Source of the DNA: Octopus vulgaris
Lineage: Eukaryota
Assembly (NCBI GenBank): GCA_951406725.2
Contig: OX597826.1
Span: forward strand, 17,112,001-17,176,000
Direction: 5' to 3'
DNA length: 64,000 bases
Made by a program: the position numbers and the translations under genes. The notes below the pieces were generated by a model. The model was not told where the DNA came from and did not search any database. It worked only from the letters and a program-made list of their open reading frames with translations. Shown one piece after another: positions 1,001-53,352 of the stretch (its first letter is position 1; each line of letters starts with the position of its first letter).

Positions 1001-1126
1001 TCATTCCCAGTTCATACGATTCATGACACTCTCTTCATCTTTAACTTCCACCAGAGATGAACGAGGAGGGTGAATTCCATGACGCTTCGGTGTCATACTC
1101 ATTTCATTGTCCTTGTAATGATTTCC
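1001..1126 (-). CDS. Probable terminal coding exon of the iGluR gene (GNHYKDNEMSMTPKRHGIHPPRSSLVEVKDEESVMNRMNWE*)
   Basis: Acceptor ttggttatttgtag and a phase-0 open frame of 41 codons to TGA at 1001-1003, in locally higher GC. No homology support because the C-tail is variable. Confidence 0.6.
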   Translation of the reverse strand, partial: GNHYKDNEMSMTPKRHGIHPPRSSLVEVKDEESVMNRMNWE

Positions 1127-2555: not shown

Positions 2556-2739
2556 CTCTTTGACGTTGTTACTGCTGCTGTGTCTTGTGCGTGATGTACA
2601 TTGATGCACACTGCACACTATTGTTGATAGTGCTATACCTCCGAGAACCACGACGAACAAGCCTGCCACGTTTTCTAGACGAAGCGATGTTGTTTTCGTA
2701 CTTTGGTGACCATCTGGGCAGGATGACACTCGCCACCAT
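2556..2739 (-). CDS. iGluR-family gene, end of S2 plus M4 exon (K-WWRVSSC...SLRLENVAGLFVVVLGGIALS...NNVKE)
   Basis: Acceptor ttgccttgcag. The first A completes the AA of the previous exon to give the conserved KWW. Contains the second S2 Cys and the M4 motif LENVAGLF. Donor GAG|gtaac. Confidence 0.92.
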
Positions 2740-11329: not shown

Positions 11330-13083
11330 GATTAGCAATTACCGACCCATTGCTTTCTTAACCTCTTATGGAAAGTATTAACAGGTACCCTCGCAGGGAA
11401 AATATATACGTTCCTTGCGGAAAACAATCGTCTGCCAGTAGAAGAAAAGGGGTGCTGAAAAGGATCCAAGGGCACCAAGGACCACCTTGTGATAGATAAG
11501 GTTTTAATGAAGAACTGTAAACGGTAGCAAATATCTTATGCGTGGCCTGGATAGACTTCAAAAAGGCTTACGACATGTTGGAGCATTCGTGGATTTTGGA
11601 AACACTCGACATGTGTGGAATAGCTGAGAACGTGTTGGAAAACACGTCTTTCCTGTAAGAACCAGTACTTAGCCGAGGTAACAACCAAAAGAGTTATGTT
11701 CCAGAGAGATTCTTATTCACCTCTGTTGTTTGTTATAGCCTTGATCCCACTTTCTGTAATTCTACATAAAATCAACGTGCACTATGGGTTGAGAAAGAAC
11801 GGACCTCGTCTCAAATACCTTCTCTTCATGAATAATTTAAAACTGTTCACAAAAATAGAGCCTAAAATGGAGAGGCTGGTTGAGACTGTCCAAATGAGCA
11901 GCAAGGATATTGGGATGGAATTTGGGATTTTGAAGTGTGCGGCGCTTACTTTGAAGCAGAGGGGTAAAGAGTAAATTGTAGGGGCATAGAATTGCCAAAC
12001 GGAGAGAGAATGGAAGGCTCGGATGATGATGGATACAATTACTTTGGGATCCTGGAGCTGGACAATAACTTACACAGAGAAATGAAAGACAAGATCATGA
12101 CTGCATATTCCAATCGCCTCAAACTTCTCTTGAAATCAAATCTCAACTCAAGGAACCTTGAGATTGTGCTATTAACATATGGGCTGTTGCTGTGGCCCAC
12201 TATAGTGCACCCGTCTTGAGATGGATACAAGCAGAGATTAACCAACTTGATTGCACTGCCCGAAAGAAAATTACAATGCATGGTCACCTCCACCCTAAGG
12301 AAAATGTACACATGATCTACATGAAGAGAGGTAAGGGCGGACGTGGATTGATTAGCGTATGGGCTTGCATCAAAAGTGAAAGGAAAACATGGCAGAATAT
12401 TTGGTAAACAGCAAAGAAGAACTGCTACAGTACGCTGCTAGTGCAGTAGGAGTTAACAAAAATGGACTTGATAGTGCTCATGAATTCCGAACAAGAGCAG
12501 TCAACGAGAGAGAAGAAAGCCTACTCCGTATGGAATTACATGGTCAGTTCCATCGTGAAACCAACAAATTAAAAGACTAGGAAGCATCATGGAGGTGGCT
12601 CAACAAGAATGACATAAATAAAATACTGAAAGCCTAATCATCGCGGCACATGATCAGGCATTGAATACCAACTCAGTGTTAGAGTACCGAAGGCCGAATA
12701 TAGTAACCTTTAGTAGTAGTGACTAGCAAGAGTGCCTAATAATCGACCTATCATAAATGAAAGAGAAAAGGTTGAAAAATATGGAAACTTGAGAATTCAG
12801 ATCACTAAGATGTGGCAGCTACGAGAGTCTAACATAAAGGTTATCCATATTGTCATCGGAGCATTGGGTTCAATATCACCCAATCTGAAAAAAATCTGGA
12901 AACCTTAGAGATACGCTACAATCTAGATGTATTGCAAAAGTCGGCATTACTTGGAACAGCACGCATATTGCGTAAAGTACTGTCTGTCTGAGGTCCTTGT
13001 TCTGACTTGACAAATAGTACAAACCCCGGTAAACACAATATCTTCAATTAACAACCTCACGATATTACATCCTGTACGACATC

Positions 13084-13085
<2 letters not shown>
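11330..13085 (+). mobile_element. Decayed Dong/R4-like non-LTR retrotransposon (RT plus RLE endonuclease)
   Basis: NYRPIA, AWIDFKKAYDM, FQRDSYSPLLFVIAL, LLFMNNLKL, LHGQF, IVIGALG and LQKSALLGTARILRKVL, with stops and frameshifts. (AAT)n on both sides. Confidence 0.9.
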
Positions 13086-13124
<39 letters not shown>

Positions 13125-13137
13125 CAACAATAGTAAC

Positions 13138-13533
13138 CCTTTCTACTGGAGGAACAAGGCTTCACATTTGAAGGGAAGGGGCTAGTCGACGAAATTAACC
13201 CCAGTATTTCACTGGTACTTAGTTTATCGACCCCGAAAGGATGAAAGGCAAAGTTGACCTCGGCGGAATTTGAACTCTGAACGTAGCGACGGGCGAAATA
13301 CCTATTTCTTTACTACCCACAAAGGGCTAAGCACAGAGAGGGTAAACAAGGACAGACAAACGGATTAAGTCGATTATATCGACCCCAGTGCGTAACTGGT
13401 ACTTAATTTATCGACCGCGAAAGGATGAAAGGCAAAGTCGACCTGGGCGGAATTTGAACTCAGAACGTAGCGGCAGACAAAATACTGCTGAGCATTTCGC
13501 CCGGCGTGCTAACGTTTCTGCCAGCTCGCCGCC
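13138..13533 (-). mobile_element. tRNA-derived SINE family A with internal duplication
   Basis: Reverse complement of the 10188-10582 element. Confidence 0.88.
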
Positions 13534-13534
13534 T

Positions 13535-13536
<2 letters not shown>

Positions 13537-13606
<70 letters not shown>

Positions 13607-13642
13607 GTAATAGTAATAATAATAATAATAATAGTAATAGTA

Positions 13643-13731
<89 letters not shown>

Positions 13732-13790
13732 AAGAAGAAGAAGAAGAAGAAGAAGAAGAAGAAGAAGAAGAAGAAGAAGAAGAAGAAGAA
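13537..13790. repeat. Compound (AAT)n(AAG)n microsatellite
   Basis: Direct inspection. Confidence 0.95.
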
Positions 13791-15555
13791 TGAAAGTATG
13801 AAACTTTGGAATACTGAATCGATCGAAGAAAAACCAAAAACTCGGAAAAGTGAACATCAGACATGGAATATTCCAAGGTGATAGCATATCTCTATGGCAA
13901 TTCATATTGGCCATAACACTGCTCACTATGAATCAACGAAAAGTTGAAGTTGCTTACGATTTGGGAAAAGGAAATGGTCAGATAAAATCATCTCCTTTTC
14001 ATGGGTGATATAAAGGTTTATGCGAAAAATGAGAAACTGGTTGAATGTCTCGTGCATACTACCCGCATTTTCTCAAATGACGTAGGTAAGCAATTTGGGA
14101 TAGAAAAGCGCGCTATATTGAAAGTGCAACGAGGAATATTTGAAAGAAGCCAGGGAATCGAATTACCATACGGGCAAACAATGAGAGCAGAGAAAGGACA
14201 GTGGTATAAGTACTTGGGAATGCTGGAAGGAGACGAAATTTTTAAAAAAATTAAGAAATGAAACAAATTACCGGTAGGGAGTCCACAAGGAGAGTAAATT
14301 ATTGCATTCAAAGCTGAATCCAAAACATATTATCGAAGTATTCAATTCATGAGCAGTACCCTTAATCAGATATGGTGTTGAAATTATAGACTGGGCCACA
14401 AATGATATAAAGAAACTTGACAGAAAAACAAGAAAGTTGTTGACAATGTGTGGAACCCACCACCCGAAAGCTGACATTAACCGGCTGTACACGAAGAAAG
14501 ACCAGGGTGGAAGAGGCTTAACAGCTGTCGAAGAATGTGTACAAAGGGAAAGAAAAAGCCTAGCAAAGTACTTACAGAGCAACACAGAAAAATATTAAAG
14601 GCAGTAAATAAAGAATAGTTGATCAAGCGCGTAATAGGAGAAAAGGACAAGAATGAAATACAATGGGAGCACGTCAGACAGATTGAAGAGAAACCTCTGC
14701 ATGGCCAATTTTGGAGAGCCACCGAAGATGTATGAGGATCATATTCCAGGGCTTGGTTAAAAATGTGCAATTAAAAAAAGAAACAGAGAGCCTAATTGTT
14801 GCAATCCAAGGTCAAGCGATAAAAACAAAGATCTTGAGAAAATATGTATATATGGAGAGAATGTGGCAGAAAAATGTCGAGCCTGTGGAACTTGGAACGA
14901 GACAGTATCACACATTATGAAAGAATATAAGAAATGGAGACACGACCAGGACGTAGTGGCTTTACACTGGAAACTGTCAAGAATGAGGATTTGAACCCGG
15001 AAACACATGGTATAATCATCGAGTCGAAAGAGTACTGGAGTCGAAGAAATGTAAGATTTTGTGGGACTTCCCTATACAAATGGTTGTGCCACCATTTCTT
15101 ATATTCTTTCATTATGTGTGCTACTGTCTCGTTCCAAGTTCCACAGGCTCTTCATTTTAGGTAAAGCGAGGACGCTTCCTGTTCGACTCATCATGTCCGT
15201 TTGATTCCAGGATCGTAAAGAAAGAGAACGAAAGACAAAAAAAATACAATCCCTTTGAATTTGAAATAGAAAGAATTTGGACCATTAAAACAGTAAAGGT
15301 CGTTCCAATAATAATTGTTACACTGAGAACAATAAGCTAAGATGTAGACAAATGGCTGAAGGAGATTGGAATAGAATTCCCGGTAGAGCTCCTTCAGAAA
15401 GTTTGTCTTTTAAAGATAGCAATGATTATCAGGAGGCTTCTAAGCACTTGAAAGACAGCTGAAAACTTGTGGATACCTAAGGTTGCAGGTAGTAACCCGC
15501 TAGCTACATAAATCCTACCAAGAATAAGACCAAACCTGAGCCAAACCAAAATAAT
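13791..15555 (+). mobile_element. Decayed Dong/R4-like non-LTR retrotransposon (second subfamily)
   Basis: GIFQGDSISL, HLLFMGDIKVYAK, YKYLG, LHGQFW, ETESLIVAIQ, CRACG..ETVSHI and LLQKVCLLKIAMIIRRLL; 5'-truncated. Confidence 0.88.
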
Positions 15556-19538: not shown

Positions 19539-19599
19539 ACAAGGAACTTATGTCAGCATCAAGATGCACAAAAAAACTTTTAGATGACTGCCCACACGG

Positions 19600-22120
19600 A
19601 GCCCATAGTGATAATGAGTATTTCTTTAAAGATTCCAACATTTGCCAAGTTTGAGAGTAGGATATTATGGTCAACCCTGTCGAACGCTTTACTGAAGTCA
19701 AGATATATGACATCAGAGTTCGAACCTGATCCCAAGGCTTTAAGTATATCTTCAATGTGGTGTAAGAACTGTGTTAGACAGTCCCTGCCACGGCGAAAGC
19801 CATGCTGATTTTCATTTAGGAGTTCGTGGGTCTCCAGGAAGTCAGGTATCCTTGATCTTAACACTCTTTCAAACACTTTAATGATGTGGCAGGTGAGTGA
19901 GCTTGGGCGATAGTTGACTGCGAGGGATCTGTTTCCCTGTTTGAAAACCGGGATGACAGACTGAGATAGAAGCTGTTTCGGTATATAAACTGAGTCTAAG
20001 GAATTTCTCCAGAGGTTGGTCAGAGGGACTGCAAGTTGGTGTTTACATTCCTTCAGGAGACTTGCGGGAATCTCTCAGGGCCTACAGCAGAATAGTATTT
20101 GACCTCATTTATTGCTGCTATGATGTCAGAAGCAGTGAAGGTAATGTCCGAGATTTTATGTTGGGAATCAACTTCGTTCGCTTCTCTTACGTCAATATCA
20201 GTGGGATCACTAAAGACAGAGCAGTATTGTTTCTGCAGTATTTCTGCCATTTCTTTAGCATCGTGTTGGGGAATGCTGTTATAATCGATCAATGGTCCAA
20301 TGGGTGAGACAGTGGTTCTATGCTTATTTGCATAAGAATAGAACACTTTTGGGCTGTTTGATGTTTTTGATTACCCACTGTTATTCCACAGCTCTTTGAT
20401 TTTCAATGGAAGTTTTCATGTCGGTCTGCAGATGAAGTTTTTCCAACTCCAGCCTTTTCATTGTTGATGAATGTGGATGATGTATGTGGGAATATTTTAA
20501 TTGGTTGATTTTTTTTATTGAGTCTTTTTATGCGCCTGATGAGTGTTTTTCTCTTTTTAGGGATCCGGTTTCTGTTTGTGTTAGTGGATTTCGTAGGAGC
20601 GTGTTTTGAGAATGTATAGGTGACAATGTTCTCAAAGTGCTGTCATGCGGTCTCAATTTGAGTGGAACTGAGAGTAAAAGACCAGTCGATGAAAGACAGA
20701 TCCTTTCTGATTGCGCCGCAGTCCACTTTGTAGCAGTTTATGTTATCAAAGGAGTGCCATGGAGTTGGATTGGCTGGTTTGGTTTTTATATGTCGGGAAT
20801 TAAAATTGGAGAGTACCATGTCGTGGTCTGAGAGGAGAGTTTTTTCAACAGAAATACTGTGAACGGAGCTTAAGTTGTTGATTAATATTAGATCCAAGAT
20901 CGTTTTATTCTGTCTTGTTGGTTCGAGCACTAGCTGGGTCAGGAAGAATTTATCCATTAGATTAAAGAGTAATTCTGCTGCTGCTTTATCTGGTGTAGAG
21001 CATTTGCCTAACTTCAGAGTATTTTTGGGCCAGTTTATGAGGGAGGTTTAAATCACCCATCACTAGTATGTTTCCGGAGTTGTATTTTTGAAGGAAGGAC
21101 TTGATTTTGTTGAGGCACTCTTCAAAGCACTTTAGAGGTGCTTGGGGAGGCCTATCAAGACCAATAATGACTATGACTTTGACCTTGTTGAATACTGATA
21201 TAGATTCACAATAGCCATTGGAAAATATTCCTTGGCATCAACTGAAAAGGAGTCAGGGAGAAAGATGGCTGTTCCTCCTTTATTTCGGTCTGTGCGATCT
21301 GCACGAACGATGGTGAAATCTTTTATTTTCACCTCGGTATCCATATGCGTGTTGTTTATGTGAGTTTCAGTAAGGATAAAGAAAGGGAAGCAATGTGCCG
21401 TTTCGGCAAGCCAACTCTCTATATATGGGAGATTCCATTTTATGCAGTGATTGATGGGTTGATACCACGTACATTTAATAGGAATGTCGAGGTAAGGGTA
21501 GTGTGATGTTTGCATTGTTCTAAGTTATGTTTTATGTTGTTCAGTGGTAGCAATGAGAGTAGTTTTTGTATGGAGCTGTTTATCTATGATTTTCTAGTTG
21601 GTAGTGGGTATGTGGTCCTTGTGATTTGCATAAATGCTTGGTGATAGCTCATTAGATCTGGCTTAAGTCGGCCTGTCAGTAAAAAAGAGTTGCTTCTTTG
21701 GTTTGCCACTTGGTCAGAGGATACATAGTTCATGTTTATGTTATTTGGTGTTTTGGTTTTTTCATGGTTCTGTCTACGTTGTTTGACTGTAGGAGGTGAA
21801 ATGTGGTTGTATTTTGTTTTTGTTGTTGTCGTAGGTCTCCTTTGTTGCTATTTATATTTATTTTGCGATCGTTTTGTGTCCTTCAGATGGTGGTGGTTGC
21901 ATTCTGGGTTCAAGCACCTCCTTAGTGACACAGAAGTTTGGCACAGTTTATGATGGAAGAAGGTGCATCCATTGCCTTTTGTGCATCCATATTTGGGATC
22001 AGGACCATGGACTCTGTATTTACGACAGTATTTGGGGTGGATGAATACGTAGGAAGCGACCAGTAGGTGAAACTACATATCCATTCGCACGTATCACTGT
22101 CCGTAATCTCCGTCATTTAA
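19600..22120 (-). mobile_element. Decayed CR1-group LINE (Cys/His-rich ORF1 remnant, APE endonuclease, 3'-truncated RT)
   Basis: ILTETH, RADRTDRNKGGTAIF, PTRQNKTILDLIL, LSDHDMV, FYSYAN, NYRPSSLTCHIIKVFERV, NQHGFRRGRDCLTQ and IYLDFSKAFDRVDH. Confidence 0.88.
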
Positions 22121-23913: not shown

Positions 23914-25144
23914 TCATGTCATTAAGAATGAAATGTCCGATTTTCTTATGCACCAAGCTTGAAATGAAAGTCGTTAACTCTGATGTTTTTGACATTTCTT
24001 TGTTTCACAACATTGGAGAATTACATCATCGCTTTTAGAAATGCAATTCGTGTGAATTTTCTTTATCGGAAATCAATTTTTGGAAACCCATGAATAGATA
24101 AACAAAAATCGTGTTGTTTATGAAGAATGAGTTCCGTTGTGGAAACAATGCATTACAGAGGGCTTGAAACATCAATGAGGTGTTTGGTGAAGATGTGGCG
24201 TCGATGGTTTGAGAAGTTCCGATCTGGCAATTTTACTCTTGAAAATCAGCCCCTGGTAGACCTGAGACTGAGGTAGATAATGATGAGCTGGAAACTGTAG
24301 TGGAGGCGGAGTTAGTAGCAAGGTTTGATGTTTCGATTCCAACTGTATTGGATCATCTGAAACACATCGGCGAAGTAAAGAAGCTGGACAAGTGGGTACC
24401 ACGGGAATTGAACGAGCATCAAATGACACGTCAATTTGAAACTTGCAGTTCTTTGCTGTCACGGCACAAAAGCGAACACTTTTTACATCGTGTTGTTACG
24501 TGTGATGAAAAGTAGATTTGTTTTCAATAATAGCAAGCGTTCTGAATAGTGCTTGAATAGAGACGAAGTGTCTAAGTACAATCCAAAGAGAATATTCACC
24601 AGAAAAAGCTAACAGAATGTTTGCTATTCCAGCACTGGCATCATCCATTACAGCTTCATGAGACCTGGTAAGTCAATTACAGCGGATATAAACATCAACT
24701 AACTGGATGAAATGATGAATGTACATGCAATTAAACAACCGAGATTGGCCAATAGAGACAGGCCAATTCTCTTGCAAGACAATCCTCGACCACATTTTGC
24801 AGAAAGAAAGCTACTCAAGTTACAGGAACTGTACTCTGTCATCCACCATATTCACCAGACTTTGCACCAACTGACTATCACATTTTCCAGTCTAATGACA
24901 AGTTTGCATGGAAAAAATTTCAAATCTGAAAAAGATTCAAAAACAACATGTCGTGATTTCATACCCTCTTCTTGCTCTCCAGAATTCTTTGCTGCAGGCA
25001 TAAATAAGCTAGGGATAAAATGGCAAAATTGTGTTGATAATTTAGGTGCATACTTTGGTTAACTGCATTGCTTTTTGTTGAGATAAAATAAAATAAAATT
25101 TTCAGATGTTCAACATCGGACATTCCATTCTTAATGAATTGATA
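23912..25144 (+). mobile_element. Full-length but decayed mariner element with TIRs, inserted in a (TA)n tract
   Basis: TIRs tcattaagaatgaaatgtccga / tcggacattccattcttaatga. Transposase motifs WVPREL, VVTCDEK, LLQDNPRPH and HPPYSPDFAPTDYH, with stops and frameshifts; about 1.23 kb. Confidence 0.92.
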
Positions 25145-34404: not shown

Positions 34405-36170
34405 ATATGTTTGATTTTTGCTTTGTATTTGTACAAGTTTACTCTAAATCTAACCCAGAGACCTCAAGAGACAACAAGCTAGAAATTCAATTTGGTGTTT
34501 ATGCCTAGGGTACCACATTCTTAGTTTAAGAAATCATAAGAAAATTATGTTTGTTTTAAAATTTGAAATTACATAGATAGTATTTTACATAGGATATGGG
34601 CTTTTGAATTTCGGCGACTTTGGAGTTTCCTGGTATCTGAGCTAGTTAGCAATCAACCCCTTTAGCTATAATTACTAGGGCACCTATGACAACAGGTATT
34701 GTTTTAGTTTTCAGGTTCCACATTTTGCCAATTTCTATTTCAAGATCTTTATACTTGCTCAGTTTTTAGTAGGTCTTGACAGATACATTTATGTCAACTG
34801 GAACAATAAAATCAATGAGGAAATATGATTTTTGCCTGAAGTCCTTCAATATAATGTCTGGCCTATATACGCATATAATGTCTGGCCTATTTTCTGTCAG
34901 TTTGAACGGTGAAGCTCCTGAGGAGTGAGATGTAATCATTTTCAAGAACTGCAGGGGATTTGTGTTCCCACCAGTTTTTTATCATGGGGCAGGTCCAGGT
35001 TCTTTTCAAATTACCCAGTGAATATATTGTGCTGCTCTATTATGCATGTTGAGATATTCTGTTGGCGCAAGCAGACTGAACATGGAGACAACATTATCAA
35101 TGGTTTCATTTTGTCGTTTACATACACGACATGTAGAGCTACTACTGTTCTTTAATACGTTGGCCTGGTATCTCCTTGTCGGTAGGGATTCATCTTGGGC
35201 TGCCATAATAAGTCCTTCTGCTTCTGATTTTAAACCAGAAGACACTAACCATAGATGGGCAGGGGCTTCGTCATCATCGGCACTATTACCTCTCTTTGAG
35301 TATTTTCCACTGCGAGGATTGTTTTACCATTTATCAGTAAGAATATCTAAGGCAGCACTTTTAGCACAGGTTTTCATACGCTTAGCCTTTTCTGTGCTTG
35401 CTTCTAGTACGTCTAATTCTGGGATTTGTTGTATTTAGAATTGACTTAGACATTTCTTTGCCTGTTTTGTTATTTAGTATGATGTTTTCTTGTTTTCGTG
35501 CTTTAAGTTTTAACATCCAGTCATCAGAGCTTTTCAGGTAGGTATTTAGGCCAGTTGTGATAATCTTCATTCCTAATTCCTGTTGCAAAAGTCCACGGTC
35601 ACCCTCATTTTCTTGACAAGTAAAATCTTCTATATCTGCATTCTATGCATTGTCAACAATTTTCGTATTTTCCTATCAACATTATATCTTTCAGTAATTG
35701 ACTAGTTAATGATATTGAAACATATAAATCACGACTGATGTGGCTAAAGTATTAATCGCTTCGATCATGTTTCTGATATTCAGCTCTGTCCTGATATTGC
35801 GCTTACCTTGCGATAACATTCTTTCCTTATCCTTTCCCTCATCATTGAATGTTTGATTGTATCACCTTTAAATGCCTCTAGGTATTTGTAGCTTTATGAC
35901 ATTCTGTTGGTCAAGATTAACGTTGGATGTTTCGATCACTTTTTCTTTGATAAAGGTAACTTTTGCACATTTATCGAGGCCTAATTGCACCCTGATGTCC
36001 TCACTGAATTATTTAACAATTGCTAATAAGCCCTGTAGTTGTTGATCATTTTTTGCAAAGACCTTTAAATCATCCATGTAAAAGAGATTATTTCTACTTT
36101 TATCAAATATTTTATAGCCATATTGTACATCATCGAACAATTTCGAGAGAAGTATTACGGCTAGACAAAA
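34405..36170 (-). mobile_element. Decayed Dong/R4-like non-LTR retrotransposon (third subfamily)
   Basis: FYMDDLKVFAK, FGLDKCAK-like, SSGLKSEAEGLIMAAQD, CRVC...ETIDNV, HNRAAQYIHW, RPDIILKD and IPVVIGAL. The 3' end abuts (TAA)n. Confidence 0.9.
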
Positions 36171-36199
36171 AAGAACTGTATCAGTGCTTTTTTATTATT

Positions 36200-36600
36200 C
36201 TTTTCAGTTTATCCTATATTTTATTGGGGCTCCTCGAATTTTGCATTCGCTCTTTTCAACTATCTAATACTTTCCTGATTATTCTGGCTGTGTCAAGGAG
36301 CCAAACCCTTTGTAACAATTCTACTAGGCACCTATTCCAATTTTATTTATATTTCCCTTGATGCCTTCTGATACGGTTCACAAGGACTCAACAATAATCG
36401 GCATTATCTTCACCTCCTTCATTTTCCATAGCCGGACTATTTTATACTCAAGAGAGTTGTATCTGTCTATATTTTCGCCTTCCTCCTTGACTATTCGTGG
36501 GTCAAAGGGGCATGCAATATCAACTATATAGCATATGTTGTGCACCTTGTCCACCACCACAAGATCGTGTCTCTTATGCTCTAGTACTTGGCCTATTTGG
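36200..36600 (-). mobile_element. RLE endonuclease 3' fragment of a Dong/R4-like element
   Basis: RHDLVVVDK...YIVDIACPFD...IMPIIVESL...LLQRVWLLDTARIIRKVL. Confidence 0.8.
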
Positions 36601-36654
36601 ATTCATAAATCCTTGGACCCCATTCGGTCCTGGGCTCTTCAAATTTGAGGATTA

Positions 36655-43411: not shown

Positions 43412-44235
43412 TTGCCCTCGCTCTTCTGTCTTTCACCAGTGTCACCCAGTTTTAAAATGGCATTTGATAATGCCTCTGTATAGGCTGTGTCTTTCCGTAC
43501 AGCAAATCCATAACCTTTCAAATCGAATGGATTTCCGATTTCCATAAGATCGCATTTGTCAGCAATTTCCCATCGAAGTGTCGGAGAATCCCAGATAAAG
43601 GCATATTTGGTGTTTCTTGCTCTAGCTAATCCTTCTTCTACCCTTTGTACAATGCTCTTGTCATTAAATCTCATATGGAGCCACATCTTACTATAATGAC
43701 TAATATTGGTGTGCTTGAAAAAGTCTTCAATTTGGCTCTCATTTACCGTTCCATAGTCATATGCTGTTTGATATGCTAGGTCTGCTGCGTTTTCTATTGG
43801 TAAATAAATGTTAGTAACAGTGAGAAAAGCAGCAAGATTGGCTGTGTACACAGATATGATAATCAGTGAAAAAAGCCACCATGAACTACTTATGATTCTA
43901 CTAGATACTGCTAATGGGGAGCTCTTCAGACTTCCACGTAGTAATGTTCCCCATATGTACCAAAAGCTCTCGAGGAAGTTGTGCGTATATTTGCGGTGTT
44001 TGTCAGAGTTGACTCGACTCACGCCAAACAGTGCAAGGCTGACCACGAGAAAGGATAAAAATATTGCAATCCACACATAGTTTGATAACGGAAATAAAAA
44101 CTGAAACATCCACACTGTTCTCTGTGGCTTCTTTACGACCACTGTGGTACCTTTCGTCATGAATGACTTGGTAAAGTCCACCACTTGTGATCGCTCAGGG
44201 GTAACGCTAAATGGTGCCAAAGCAACATCAGCTTT
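43412..44235 (-). CDS. iGluR-family gene, large exon covering the end of S1, M1, M2 pore loop, M3 and most of S2
   Basis: KADVALAPFSVTPERSQVVDFTKSFM, WWLFSLIIISVYTANLAAFLT, YGTV, YAFIWDS, CDLMEIG, KGYGFAV. Acceptor tttcag, donor gtaagt; 824 nt ending in phase 2 (AA). Confidence 0.97.
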
Positions 44236-47401: not shown

Positions 47402-47623
47402 ATTATCCATTAGTTCTCGAATCATTCCTGTCCAACCTCTTTTCTTCTTGCTGCCAAATTTTCCATCGGGTGCGAGATAAATTTCAAATTGAAATTTTAA
47501 AATCTTTGACATGGCTTTAAGTATATCAATGCAAAACCCCTCCAACTGCAGGTTATTTCTGGACTTAACAGGATCATCGTTTAGATAATCGGTGGAGTTT
47601 CTCACTTGAACAAAAGGTGGTTC
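47402..47623 (-). CDS. iGluR-family gene, S1 exon (EPPFV...LEGFCIDIL...DGKFG...WTGMIRELMDN)
   Basis: Canonical S1 motifs GFCIDIL, DGKFG and WTGMIREL. Acceptor attcag, donor gtaagc; 222 nt, phase 0/0. Confidence 0.95.
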
Positions 47624-53223: not shown

Positions 53224-53352
53224 TATGATGGTTACTACTCTAAGAGGCTTCGTTCCAAAGATGTCTCCGCGGTACCGTGGAACACTGCTAACACTTCGAT
53301 TGATCATAATTCTCGAGTCTCTGGTCTTCGGACCGCTACGCCAGGTACTGCG
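53224..53352 (-). CDS. iGluR-family gene, exon encoding the end of the ATD/linker and start of S1 (RSTWRSGPKTRDSRIMINRSVSSVPRYRGDIFGTKPLRVVTII)
   Basis: Not in the ORF track. Acceptor ttcttgtcttag and donor gtaagt flank a 129-nt open frame. LRVVTII joins EPPFV of the next exon in phase 0, matching the iGluR S1 start motif. Confidence 0.85.

Follow-up and report, generated by a model that had tools for sequence, protein, structure and literature searches.

The window analysed here, a stretch of 64,000 nucleotides from Octopus vulgaris (contig OX597826.1, positions 17,112,001 to 17,176,000 of assembly GCA_951406725.2), covers five coding exons of an iGluR gene on its minus strand, the remaining exons lying upstream. 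The 824-nucleotide exon at its core is 100% identical to an 850-residue protein (P0001) named in the databases for Octopus vulgaris and O. sinensis, and the full gene for this protein, mapped exon by exon, extends over about 274 kb of the contig. In window positions, the features are as follows:

53224..53352, minus strand: exon linking ATD to S1, residues 357–399, from the exon mapping (residues 1–356 are encoded upstream of the window)
47402..47623, minus strand: S1 ligand-binding exon, residues 400–473 (Pfam Lig_chan-Glu_bd, E 2.8e-18), joined to position 44235 in contigs
43412..44235, minus strand: 824-nt exon with AG/GT ends, encoding the end of S1 (with the R485 equivalent), M1, the M2 pore loop, M3 and most of S2
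43936..43938, minus strand: Arg codon CGT at the Q/R (Q1) site, residue 573 of the 850-residue protein, kept in all 44 orthologues among the matches listed
43930..43935, minus strand: Gly at +1 and Ser at +2 (AGT, 43932-43930), the mollusc Zeta filter pattern, common to the Gln-type paralogue
43924..43926, minus strand: Lys codon AAG at +4 (the GluA2 D590 position), a coleoid trait without conservation across molluscs
2556..2739, minus strand: M4 exon, across a 40.7-kb intron, its junction to position 43412 present in contigs
1001..1126, minus strand: last coding exon, C-terminal tail and stop, from the exon mapping

The ATD, the S1/S2 ligand-binding domain, M1-M2-M3 and M4 follow one another in order, as judged by Pfam, PF01094 on P0001 and the exon mapping. 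The 824-nt exon matches Pfam Lig_chan (E 7.8e-29) and the GluA2 structures (phmmer E 2.8e-60, gap-free over M2-M3), and fold searches, which confirm the family without a residue-level view of the pore, match GluA2 and GluK2. Eight of the 24 runs listed were examined, seven of them taken as RNA by guess and one unlabelled, none being recorded as RNA; in all eight, contigs splice the pore exon to both of its neighbours, across introns of 3.2 and 40.7 kb, and retain both the Arg and the Lys codon. The contigs of four runs carry a synonymous change at 43921 alone and those of three carry no change, while one run (X19) shows 15 differences of mixed kinds, none within the Arg or Lys codon, which are taken to reflect a divergent allele or species and not editing. 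A sequence error or a pseudogene is excluded by the mapping of the full gene and by the splicing, with both codons intact, in 8/8 runs; the gene is real, expressed and ancient. Its 40.7-kb intron contains broken open reading frames that resemble, by eye, fragments of reverse transcriptases, endonucleases and mariner-type transposases, at about 11600-15200, 19583-21524, 24243-25059 and 35009-36602.

Translated on the minus strand, the pore stretch reads S-F-W-Y-I-W-G-T-L-L-R-G-S-L-K-S-S-P. A preliminary description of this DNA had claimed an Arg at the Q/R site and a Lys at +4, and both are correctly placed: the ungapped alignment with GluA2 sets the CGT codon (43938-43936) at Q/R and AAG (43926-43924) at +4, with Leu at +3. 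The accompanying remark that CGT is not the CGG editing mimic carries no weight as an argument, since any Arg in genomic DNA is unedited; a Q/R-edited subunit, with a genomic Gln recoded to Arg, is excluded by the genomic CGT, which is also present in the spliced contigs.

Concerning a placement of the Arg away from the pore-loop apex, raised in that description as contrary to its claim, both the alignment and AlphaFold2 keep the Arg at the end of the M2 helix. All 120 aligned iGluRs run without a gap from the M2 Trp to the M3 Tyr, and against the 31 Zeta rows of the x-G-S/N type the helix, the loop (score 7.5) and the downstream segment all score best unshifted. With 47 x-Q-G rows the unshifted register is again the best for the flanks, whereas the five residues of the loop score higher when moved by one (2.4 versus -3.3). 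In the AlphaFold2 model built on the 120-row alignment the Arg, residue 100, directly follows the last residue of the M2 helix (99), with block pLDDT about 82 at the Arg and then 72 in the loop; in the first model, built on 28 rows, the loop pLDDT was under 50. It should be noted that such models lean on their alignments and that the direction of side chains is outside what they show. By helix register, the Arg is thus assigned to Q1, although the filter below it may differ in shape.

The receptor belongs to the Zeta class. Two O. bimaculoides proteins, XP_014790396.1 and XP_014790397.1, fall in the 90% cluster of the query, and these are, respectively, GluZ3_Obi and GluZ2_Obi in the table of Zeng et al. 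2021 (PMC8437780), where XP_014768777.1 is GluZ1_Obi; because of these matches the octopus gene is taken as GluZ2/3. In the available text of the same source Zeta is defined as a mollusc class, sister to Phi. Aplysia GluR6 is the orthologue, with 64% identity over the exon and a place in the same clade; it was termed an ‘orphan’ and is expressed in all ganglia (Greer et al. 2017, PMC5225553), and its down-regulation in aged sensory neurons has been reported (PMC6532900). The same gene is therefore already on record in both PMC8437780 and PMC5225553, and the class is named there, the accessible parts of these papers describing neither its pore nor its function. Across the literature searched—subscription journals and figure images, including two figures that could show the Arg (Fig. 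S6 of PMC8437780 and the pore alignment of PMC6307864), being outside the search—there was no account of Zeta pore or function and no recording from a Zeta receptor. The AMPA and kainate classes are excluded for the octopus gene, which lies outside both clades and has S-Q-I and Asp instead of Gly-Ser-Thr (653-655) and Glu (705); the database names ‘kainate-like’ and ‘U1-like’ are automatic labels. A divergent chemosensory IR, suggested by the large exon, is likewise excluded, as the gene has an ATD and groups in Zeta. Non-canonical pore loops are seen, too, in the iGluR-family genes L002, L005, L014, L017 and L020 of the octopus genome, L002 having Thr-Arg, for instance, and both L014 and L017 Gly-His.

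The orthologue set comprised 44 of the 120 matches listed, at least 56% identical and covering 33 named species—cephalopod, bivalves, gastropods and one chiton—with isoforms included, so that its rows are not independent. Among these listed matches the Arg is present in 44/44, across four mollusc classes, and is probably genomic throughout, since the records are genome gene models. The neighbouring positions vary in the same set: +1 is Gly in 32 and Ala in 12; +2 is Ser in 23, Asp in 11, Asn in eight, Glu in one and Gly in one; and +4 is Ser in 11, Thr in 11, Asn in nine, Gln in four, Lys in four, Val in three and Cys in two, an acidic residue at +4 occurring in 0/44. Most M2 columns are constant in 43-44 of these 44. 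The four carriers of the +4 Lys are three coleoid records and one record reading R-A-D-L-K, whose cluster groups with bivalves, where Lys thus recurs. Within coleoids the Lys is constant in 19/19 records covering the loop, the whole loop being identical (two 90% clusters). No recoding of this Lys was seen in the contigs of the 8/8 runs, which drop rare variants, or in the 19/19 coleoid R-type records. The unionid and heteroconch bivalve orthologues (P0005, P0006, P0014-P0019, P0026, P0028, P0038 and P0044) read R-A-D or R-A-E, with an acid at +2, and make up 12 of the 44 listed.

The alignment of molluscan orthologues proposed in the preliminary description therefore bears out the conservation of the Arg but not that of the Lys. 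The orthologues have conserved the Arg and the lack of an acid at +4, but no second basic residue. The lost acid has given way to a variety of neutral or basic residues, of which the Lys is taken to be one, and the counts just given for +4 Lys and +2 acid do not support a ‘doubly basic’ loop as a conserved design. A special tie to cephalopod A-to-I recoding, also suggested there, falls away: the Arg is common to the chiton, bivalves and gastropods and, being invariant across four mollusc classes and older than cephalopods, is neither octopus-specific nor linked to recoding. Outside the orthologues, Arg or Lys occupies the Q/R site in 12 of 146 aligned segments of library representatives, one of these being a member of the R clade and one misaligned, and there is an Arg, too, in records from spider and midge and in two from teleosts; such a pore residue is uncommon, not unique. 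In the accessible text of Ramos-Vicente et al. 2018 (PMC6307864), only a third of the subunits of the unreported group, and no Phi subunit, carry Gln at this site, so that variation here is common in such classes.

The nearest relatives form a second mollusc clade, GluZ1 (Aplysia GluR8; XP_014768777.1). Among its 31 members, 28 have Gln at Q/R, all 31 have Gly at +1 and an acid at +4, and 29 have Ser or Asn at +2. The replacement of the +2 Gly by Ser, as stated in the preliminary description, is hence right as to the residue but not peculiar to the octopus gene, the missing Gly being common to both mollusc branches. The octopus Q-type paralogue, with a pore reading Q-G-N-T-D, shares contig and strand with the R-type gene, from which it is 1.66 Mb distant. 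In 19 of the 24 species with both types, the R-type and the Q-type are on longest contigs of equal size (judged by eye), two of the 19 pairing via a Glu-type paralogue and the five misses being scaffolds under 2 Mb; the accessions of Argonauta follow one another directly, and Elysia crispata has the locus tags 006867, 006865 and 006863. Such linkage shows a tandem origin, not co-assembly. In the octopus paralogue (L006 near 1516, contig position about 15,238,094, minus strand) the Gln codon CAA is followed by a single base and then by an intron whose donor is GC. The position of this codon at the exon end makes A-to-I recoding to Arg possible, vertebrate Q/R sites being edited with an intronic partner; no Gln-to-Arg recoding was seen in the paralogue, with Gln in 10/10 intact coleoid Q-type records. 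An additional Zeta paralogue of oysters (P0177, P0439 and P0444) carries Glu at Q/R and may be a high-Ca2+ counterpart.

The evolutionary tree, calculated from 69 rows with the pore columns removed (quick IQ-TREE, midpoint root; FastTree agrees), supports the R clade with an SH-aLRT of 100, the mollusc Q clade with 99 and the whole Zeta group of 47 rows with 98, the Zeta group standing apart from AMPA, kainate and delta (FastTree support 1.0). The sample excluded rows named as Phi and the O. bimaculoides GluZ4 and GluZ5. The stem branch of the R clade is long (0.46). Ten named nemertean and annelid proteins fall inside the Zeta group, none with Arg (five Gln, four Gly and one Ser); they are P0333, P0179, P0170, P0204, P0368, P0370, P0371, P0167, P0168 and P0221. 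The tree therefore places a Zeta class wider than molluscs, in which only the Arg-type branch appears mollusc-limited, and the Arg would most simply have arisen on the mollusc stem, the sampling outside molluscs being thin. Several of the nemertean and annelid Zeta-like genes are on longest contigs of equal size within one species.

Regarding the ligand pocket, the R485 equivalent and Trp-Asp at 704-705 are present in 32/32 R-clade rows; residues 653-655 are S-Q-I in octopus, Gln being found at 654 in 31 and at 480 in 21 of the 32. Receptors with S-E-A/WD and S-S-L/WD motifs are gated by glycine-type ligands (glycine, D-serine, alanine) or GABA according to PMC13648236, the accessible text of which also warns explicitly that ligand prediction from pocket motifs often fails. 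The octopus pocket resembles those of such receptors, and GABA or a small neutral amino acid, rather than glutamate, is its probable ligand. Its M3 gating motif is present with Val for the first Ser (window 43849-43851, minus strand); this position is Val, Ile or Leu in 32/32 R-clade rows, the rest of the motif being kept in 32/32, and the Ser is retained in 30/31 Q-clade rows. The hydrophobic M3 residue may co-vary with the Arg. The odd pocket and gate residues of the R clade could also mean that there is no gating. The Zeta class, the pocket of non-glutamate type and the linked Q-type paralogue had all been missed in the preliminary description.

As for what the Arg does, the comparison with other iGluRs leads us to lean, if only slightly, towards an R-type partner, in whose presence Zeta heteromers would admit less Ca2+, conduct less and be less subject to polyamine block. 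The Arg-type GluZ2/3 (Aplysia GluR6) would assemble with the linked Gln-type GluZ1 (GluR8) into cation channels, which this subunit with its genomic Q/R Arg would make Ca2+-poor, polyamine-insensitive and low in conductance; the GluA2(R) device would here have been reached via gene duplication in place of editing. The Ca2+-impermeable, low-conductance or dampening subunit of the preliminary description is, on this analogy, a sound proposal for an Arg that is genomic and strictly conserved. Co-assembly is suggested more tentatively, as is a ligand other than glutamate (glycine, D-serine, alanine or GABA). In the accessible text of Wang et al. 2026 (PMC13520880), rectification and the Ca2+ effect were lost from a brachiopod heteromer when either of its subunits carried Q1R, and in an acoel heteromer a genomic Arg at Q2 likewise removes both; in one acoel background linearity was not restored by Q1R. 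In the simulation of Heiser et al. 2025 (PMC12377769), Ca2+ is blocked once two Arg are present and K+ once four are, and for D590N/S, at the position of the octopus Lys, the same source gives a fall in PCa/PNa from 4 to about 1.2. Ala at GluK2 G592 (+2) or E594 (+4) removed polyamine block (Wilding et al. 2010, PMC2931155). A simple transfer to Zeta is weakened by the placozoan Epsilon Arg mutant (10.1101/2024.06.25.600656, PMC12226733), which still conducted cations, with a mildly higher PCa/PX and a tiny Ca2+ current, and rectified more. The loop geometry, too, may differ, given the absent +2 Gly and the loop scores that prefer a shift of one, and this counts against the preferred reading.

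These last points are the core of an alternative that we regard as quite unlikely, in which the Zeta filter is rebuilt, with Gly at +1 and not at +2, and the Arg is displaced or charge-paired, so that the channel would be an ordinary cation channel with a modest change in Ca2+ flux. The shift of one favoured by the loop-only score against AMPA/kainate-type rows, the loop pLDDT of both models and the PCa/PX retained by the placozoan mutant fit it; both flanks, however, fix the ungapped register, the loop scores best unshifted against the sister clade, currents are linear and insensitive to Ca2+ with an Arg at Q2 as well (PMC13520880), and the strict conservation of the Arg argues for a role. 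It is unlikely, although less so, that the subunit is non-conducting in practice, serving for silencing or structure—as a dominant-negative subunit, or as a synaptic organiser in the way of vertebrate GluD and kainate-binding proteins—with the Arg helping to keep the pore shut. The simulated block of K+ by four Arg would agree with a silent subunit, as would the rat GluA2 Q1R homomers, which gave no current without a TARP (PMC13520880), the poor expression of the placozoan Arg mutant in patches (10.1101/2024.06.25.600656, PMC12226733), the clade-specific changes in M3 and the ligand pocket and the long stem branch; against it, the clade shows strong conservation of M2 and M3 and has kept the backbone-binding Arg and Asp, in keeping with a gate that works.

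The strongest reading of the preliminary description, in which homomers, or heteromers rich in Arg, pass Cl- to a real extent through a channel of small conductance and so act as an inhibitory or shunting iGluR, an effect that the coleoid +4 Lys would strengthen, is very unlikely. The homomeric GluK2(R) has a PCl/PCs of 0.74 (as cited in Wilding et al. 2010, PMC2931155), and Q/R Arg couples to M3 L614 in shaping GluK2 Cl- permeability (Lopez et al. 2013, PMC3753602), a position that is Leu in 32/32 R-clade rows; the clade-wide absence of the +4 acid among the matches listed and the identical loop of the coleoid records point the same way. In an earlier scan cited in PMC2931155, however, basic side chains placed from GluK2 V571 to P597 supported Cl- permeation only from the Q/R site, so that the +4 Lys should add little, and the scan gives no support to an added anion effect from it. 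Further points against such a channel are the Asp or Glu at +2 in 12 of the 44 listed orthologues, the Gln-type partner at hand and the literature searched, in which no anion-selective iGluR was found; anion permeation is possible, by the GluK2 analogy, for homomers only. More improbable still would be a glycine- or GABA-gated mollusc iGluR whose Arg-type subunit is largely anion-permeable, inhibitory or shunting, and becomes a cation channel once the linked Gln-type paralogue is co-expressed; if true, it would be the first natural chloride-passing member of the iGluR family.

Returning to the R-type partner of Zeta heteromers, its closest parallels are the edited vertebrate GluA2(R) and GluK1/2(R), alike in having an Arg at the pore apex beside Gln-type sister subunits. 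The octopus subunit differs from them in that its Arg is genomic and not edited, its Gly stands at +1 and not at +2, the +4 acid is missing, the clade is a separate one, and the pocket has S-Q-I and Trp-Asp where the vertebrate receptors have G-S-T and x-Glu. The arthropod kainate-like records from spider and midge (P0075, P0077, P0113, P0118 and P0083) share the Arg at Q/R but keep Gln at +1 and fall in the kainate clade (P0075 and P0083 in the tree), being protein records only. A genomic pore Arg after gene duplication is found, too, in the acoel AMPA subunit Hof-98014323 and in fish GluA2 (PMC13520880), the fishes having a chromosomal Q1 Arg (Kung 2001, as cited in PMC13520880); these genes are of the AMPA class, the acoel Arg being at Q2, whereas the mollusc gene is of another class, has its Arg at Q1 and is known by sequence.

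A genomic pore Arg is thus already known from fishes and acoels, and the mollusc case is an ancient variant of it in an uncharacterised class. It matters less than the preliminary description held, because other examples of such an Arg are known and the second basic residue is confined to particular lineages, the ‘doubly basic’ part being weak. If the R-type partner reading is true, molluscs would have kept a hard-wired Q/R paralogue pair since their common ancestor, in a class seemingly never recorded, and the GluA2 calcium switch would have arisen independently once more, this time in a receptor that is neither AMPA nor kainate and whose ligand is perhaps not glutamate.
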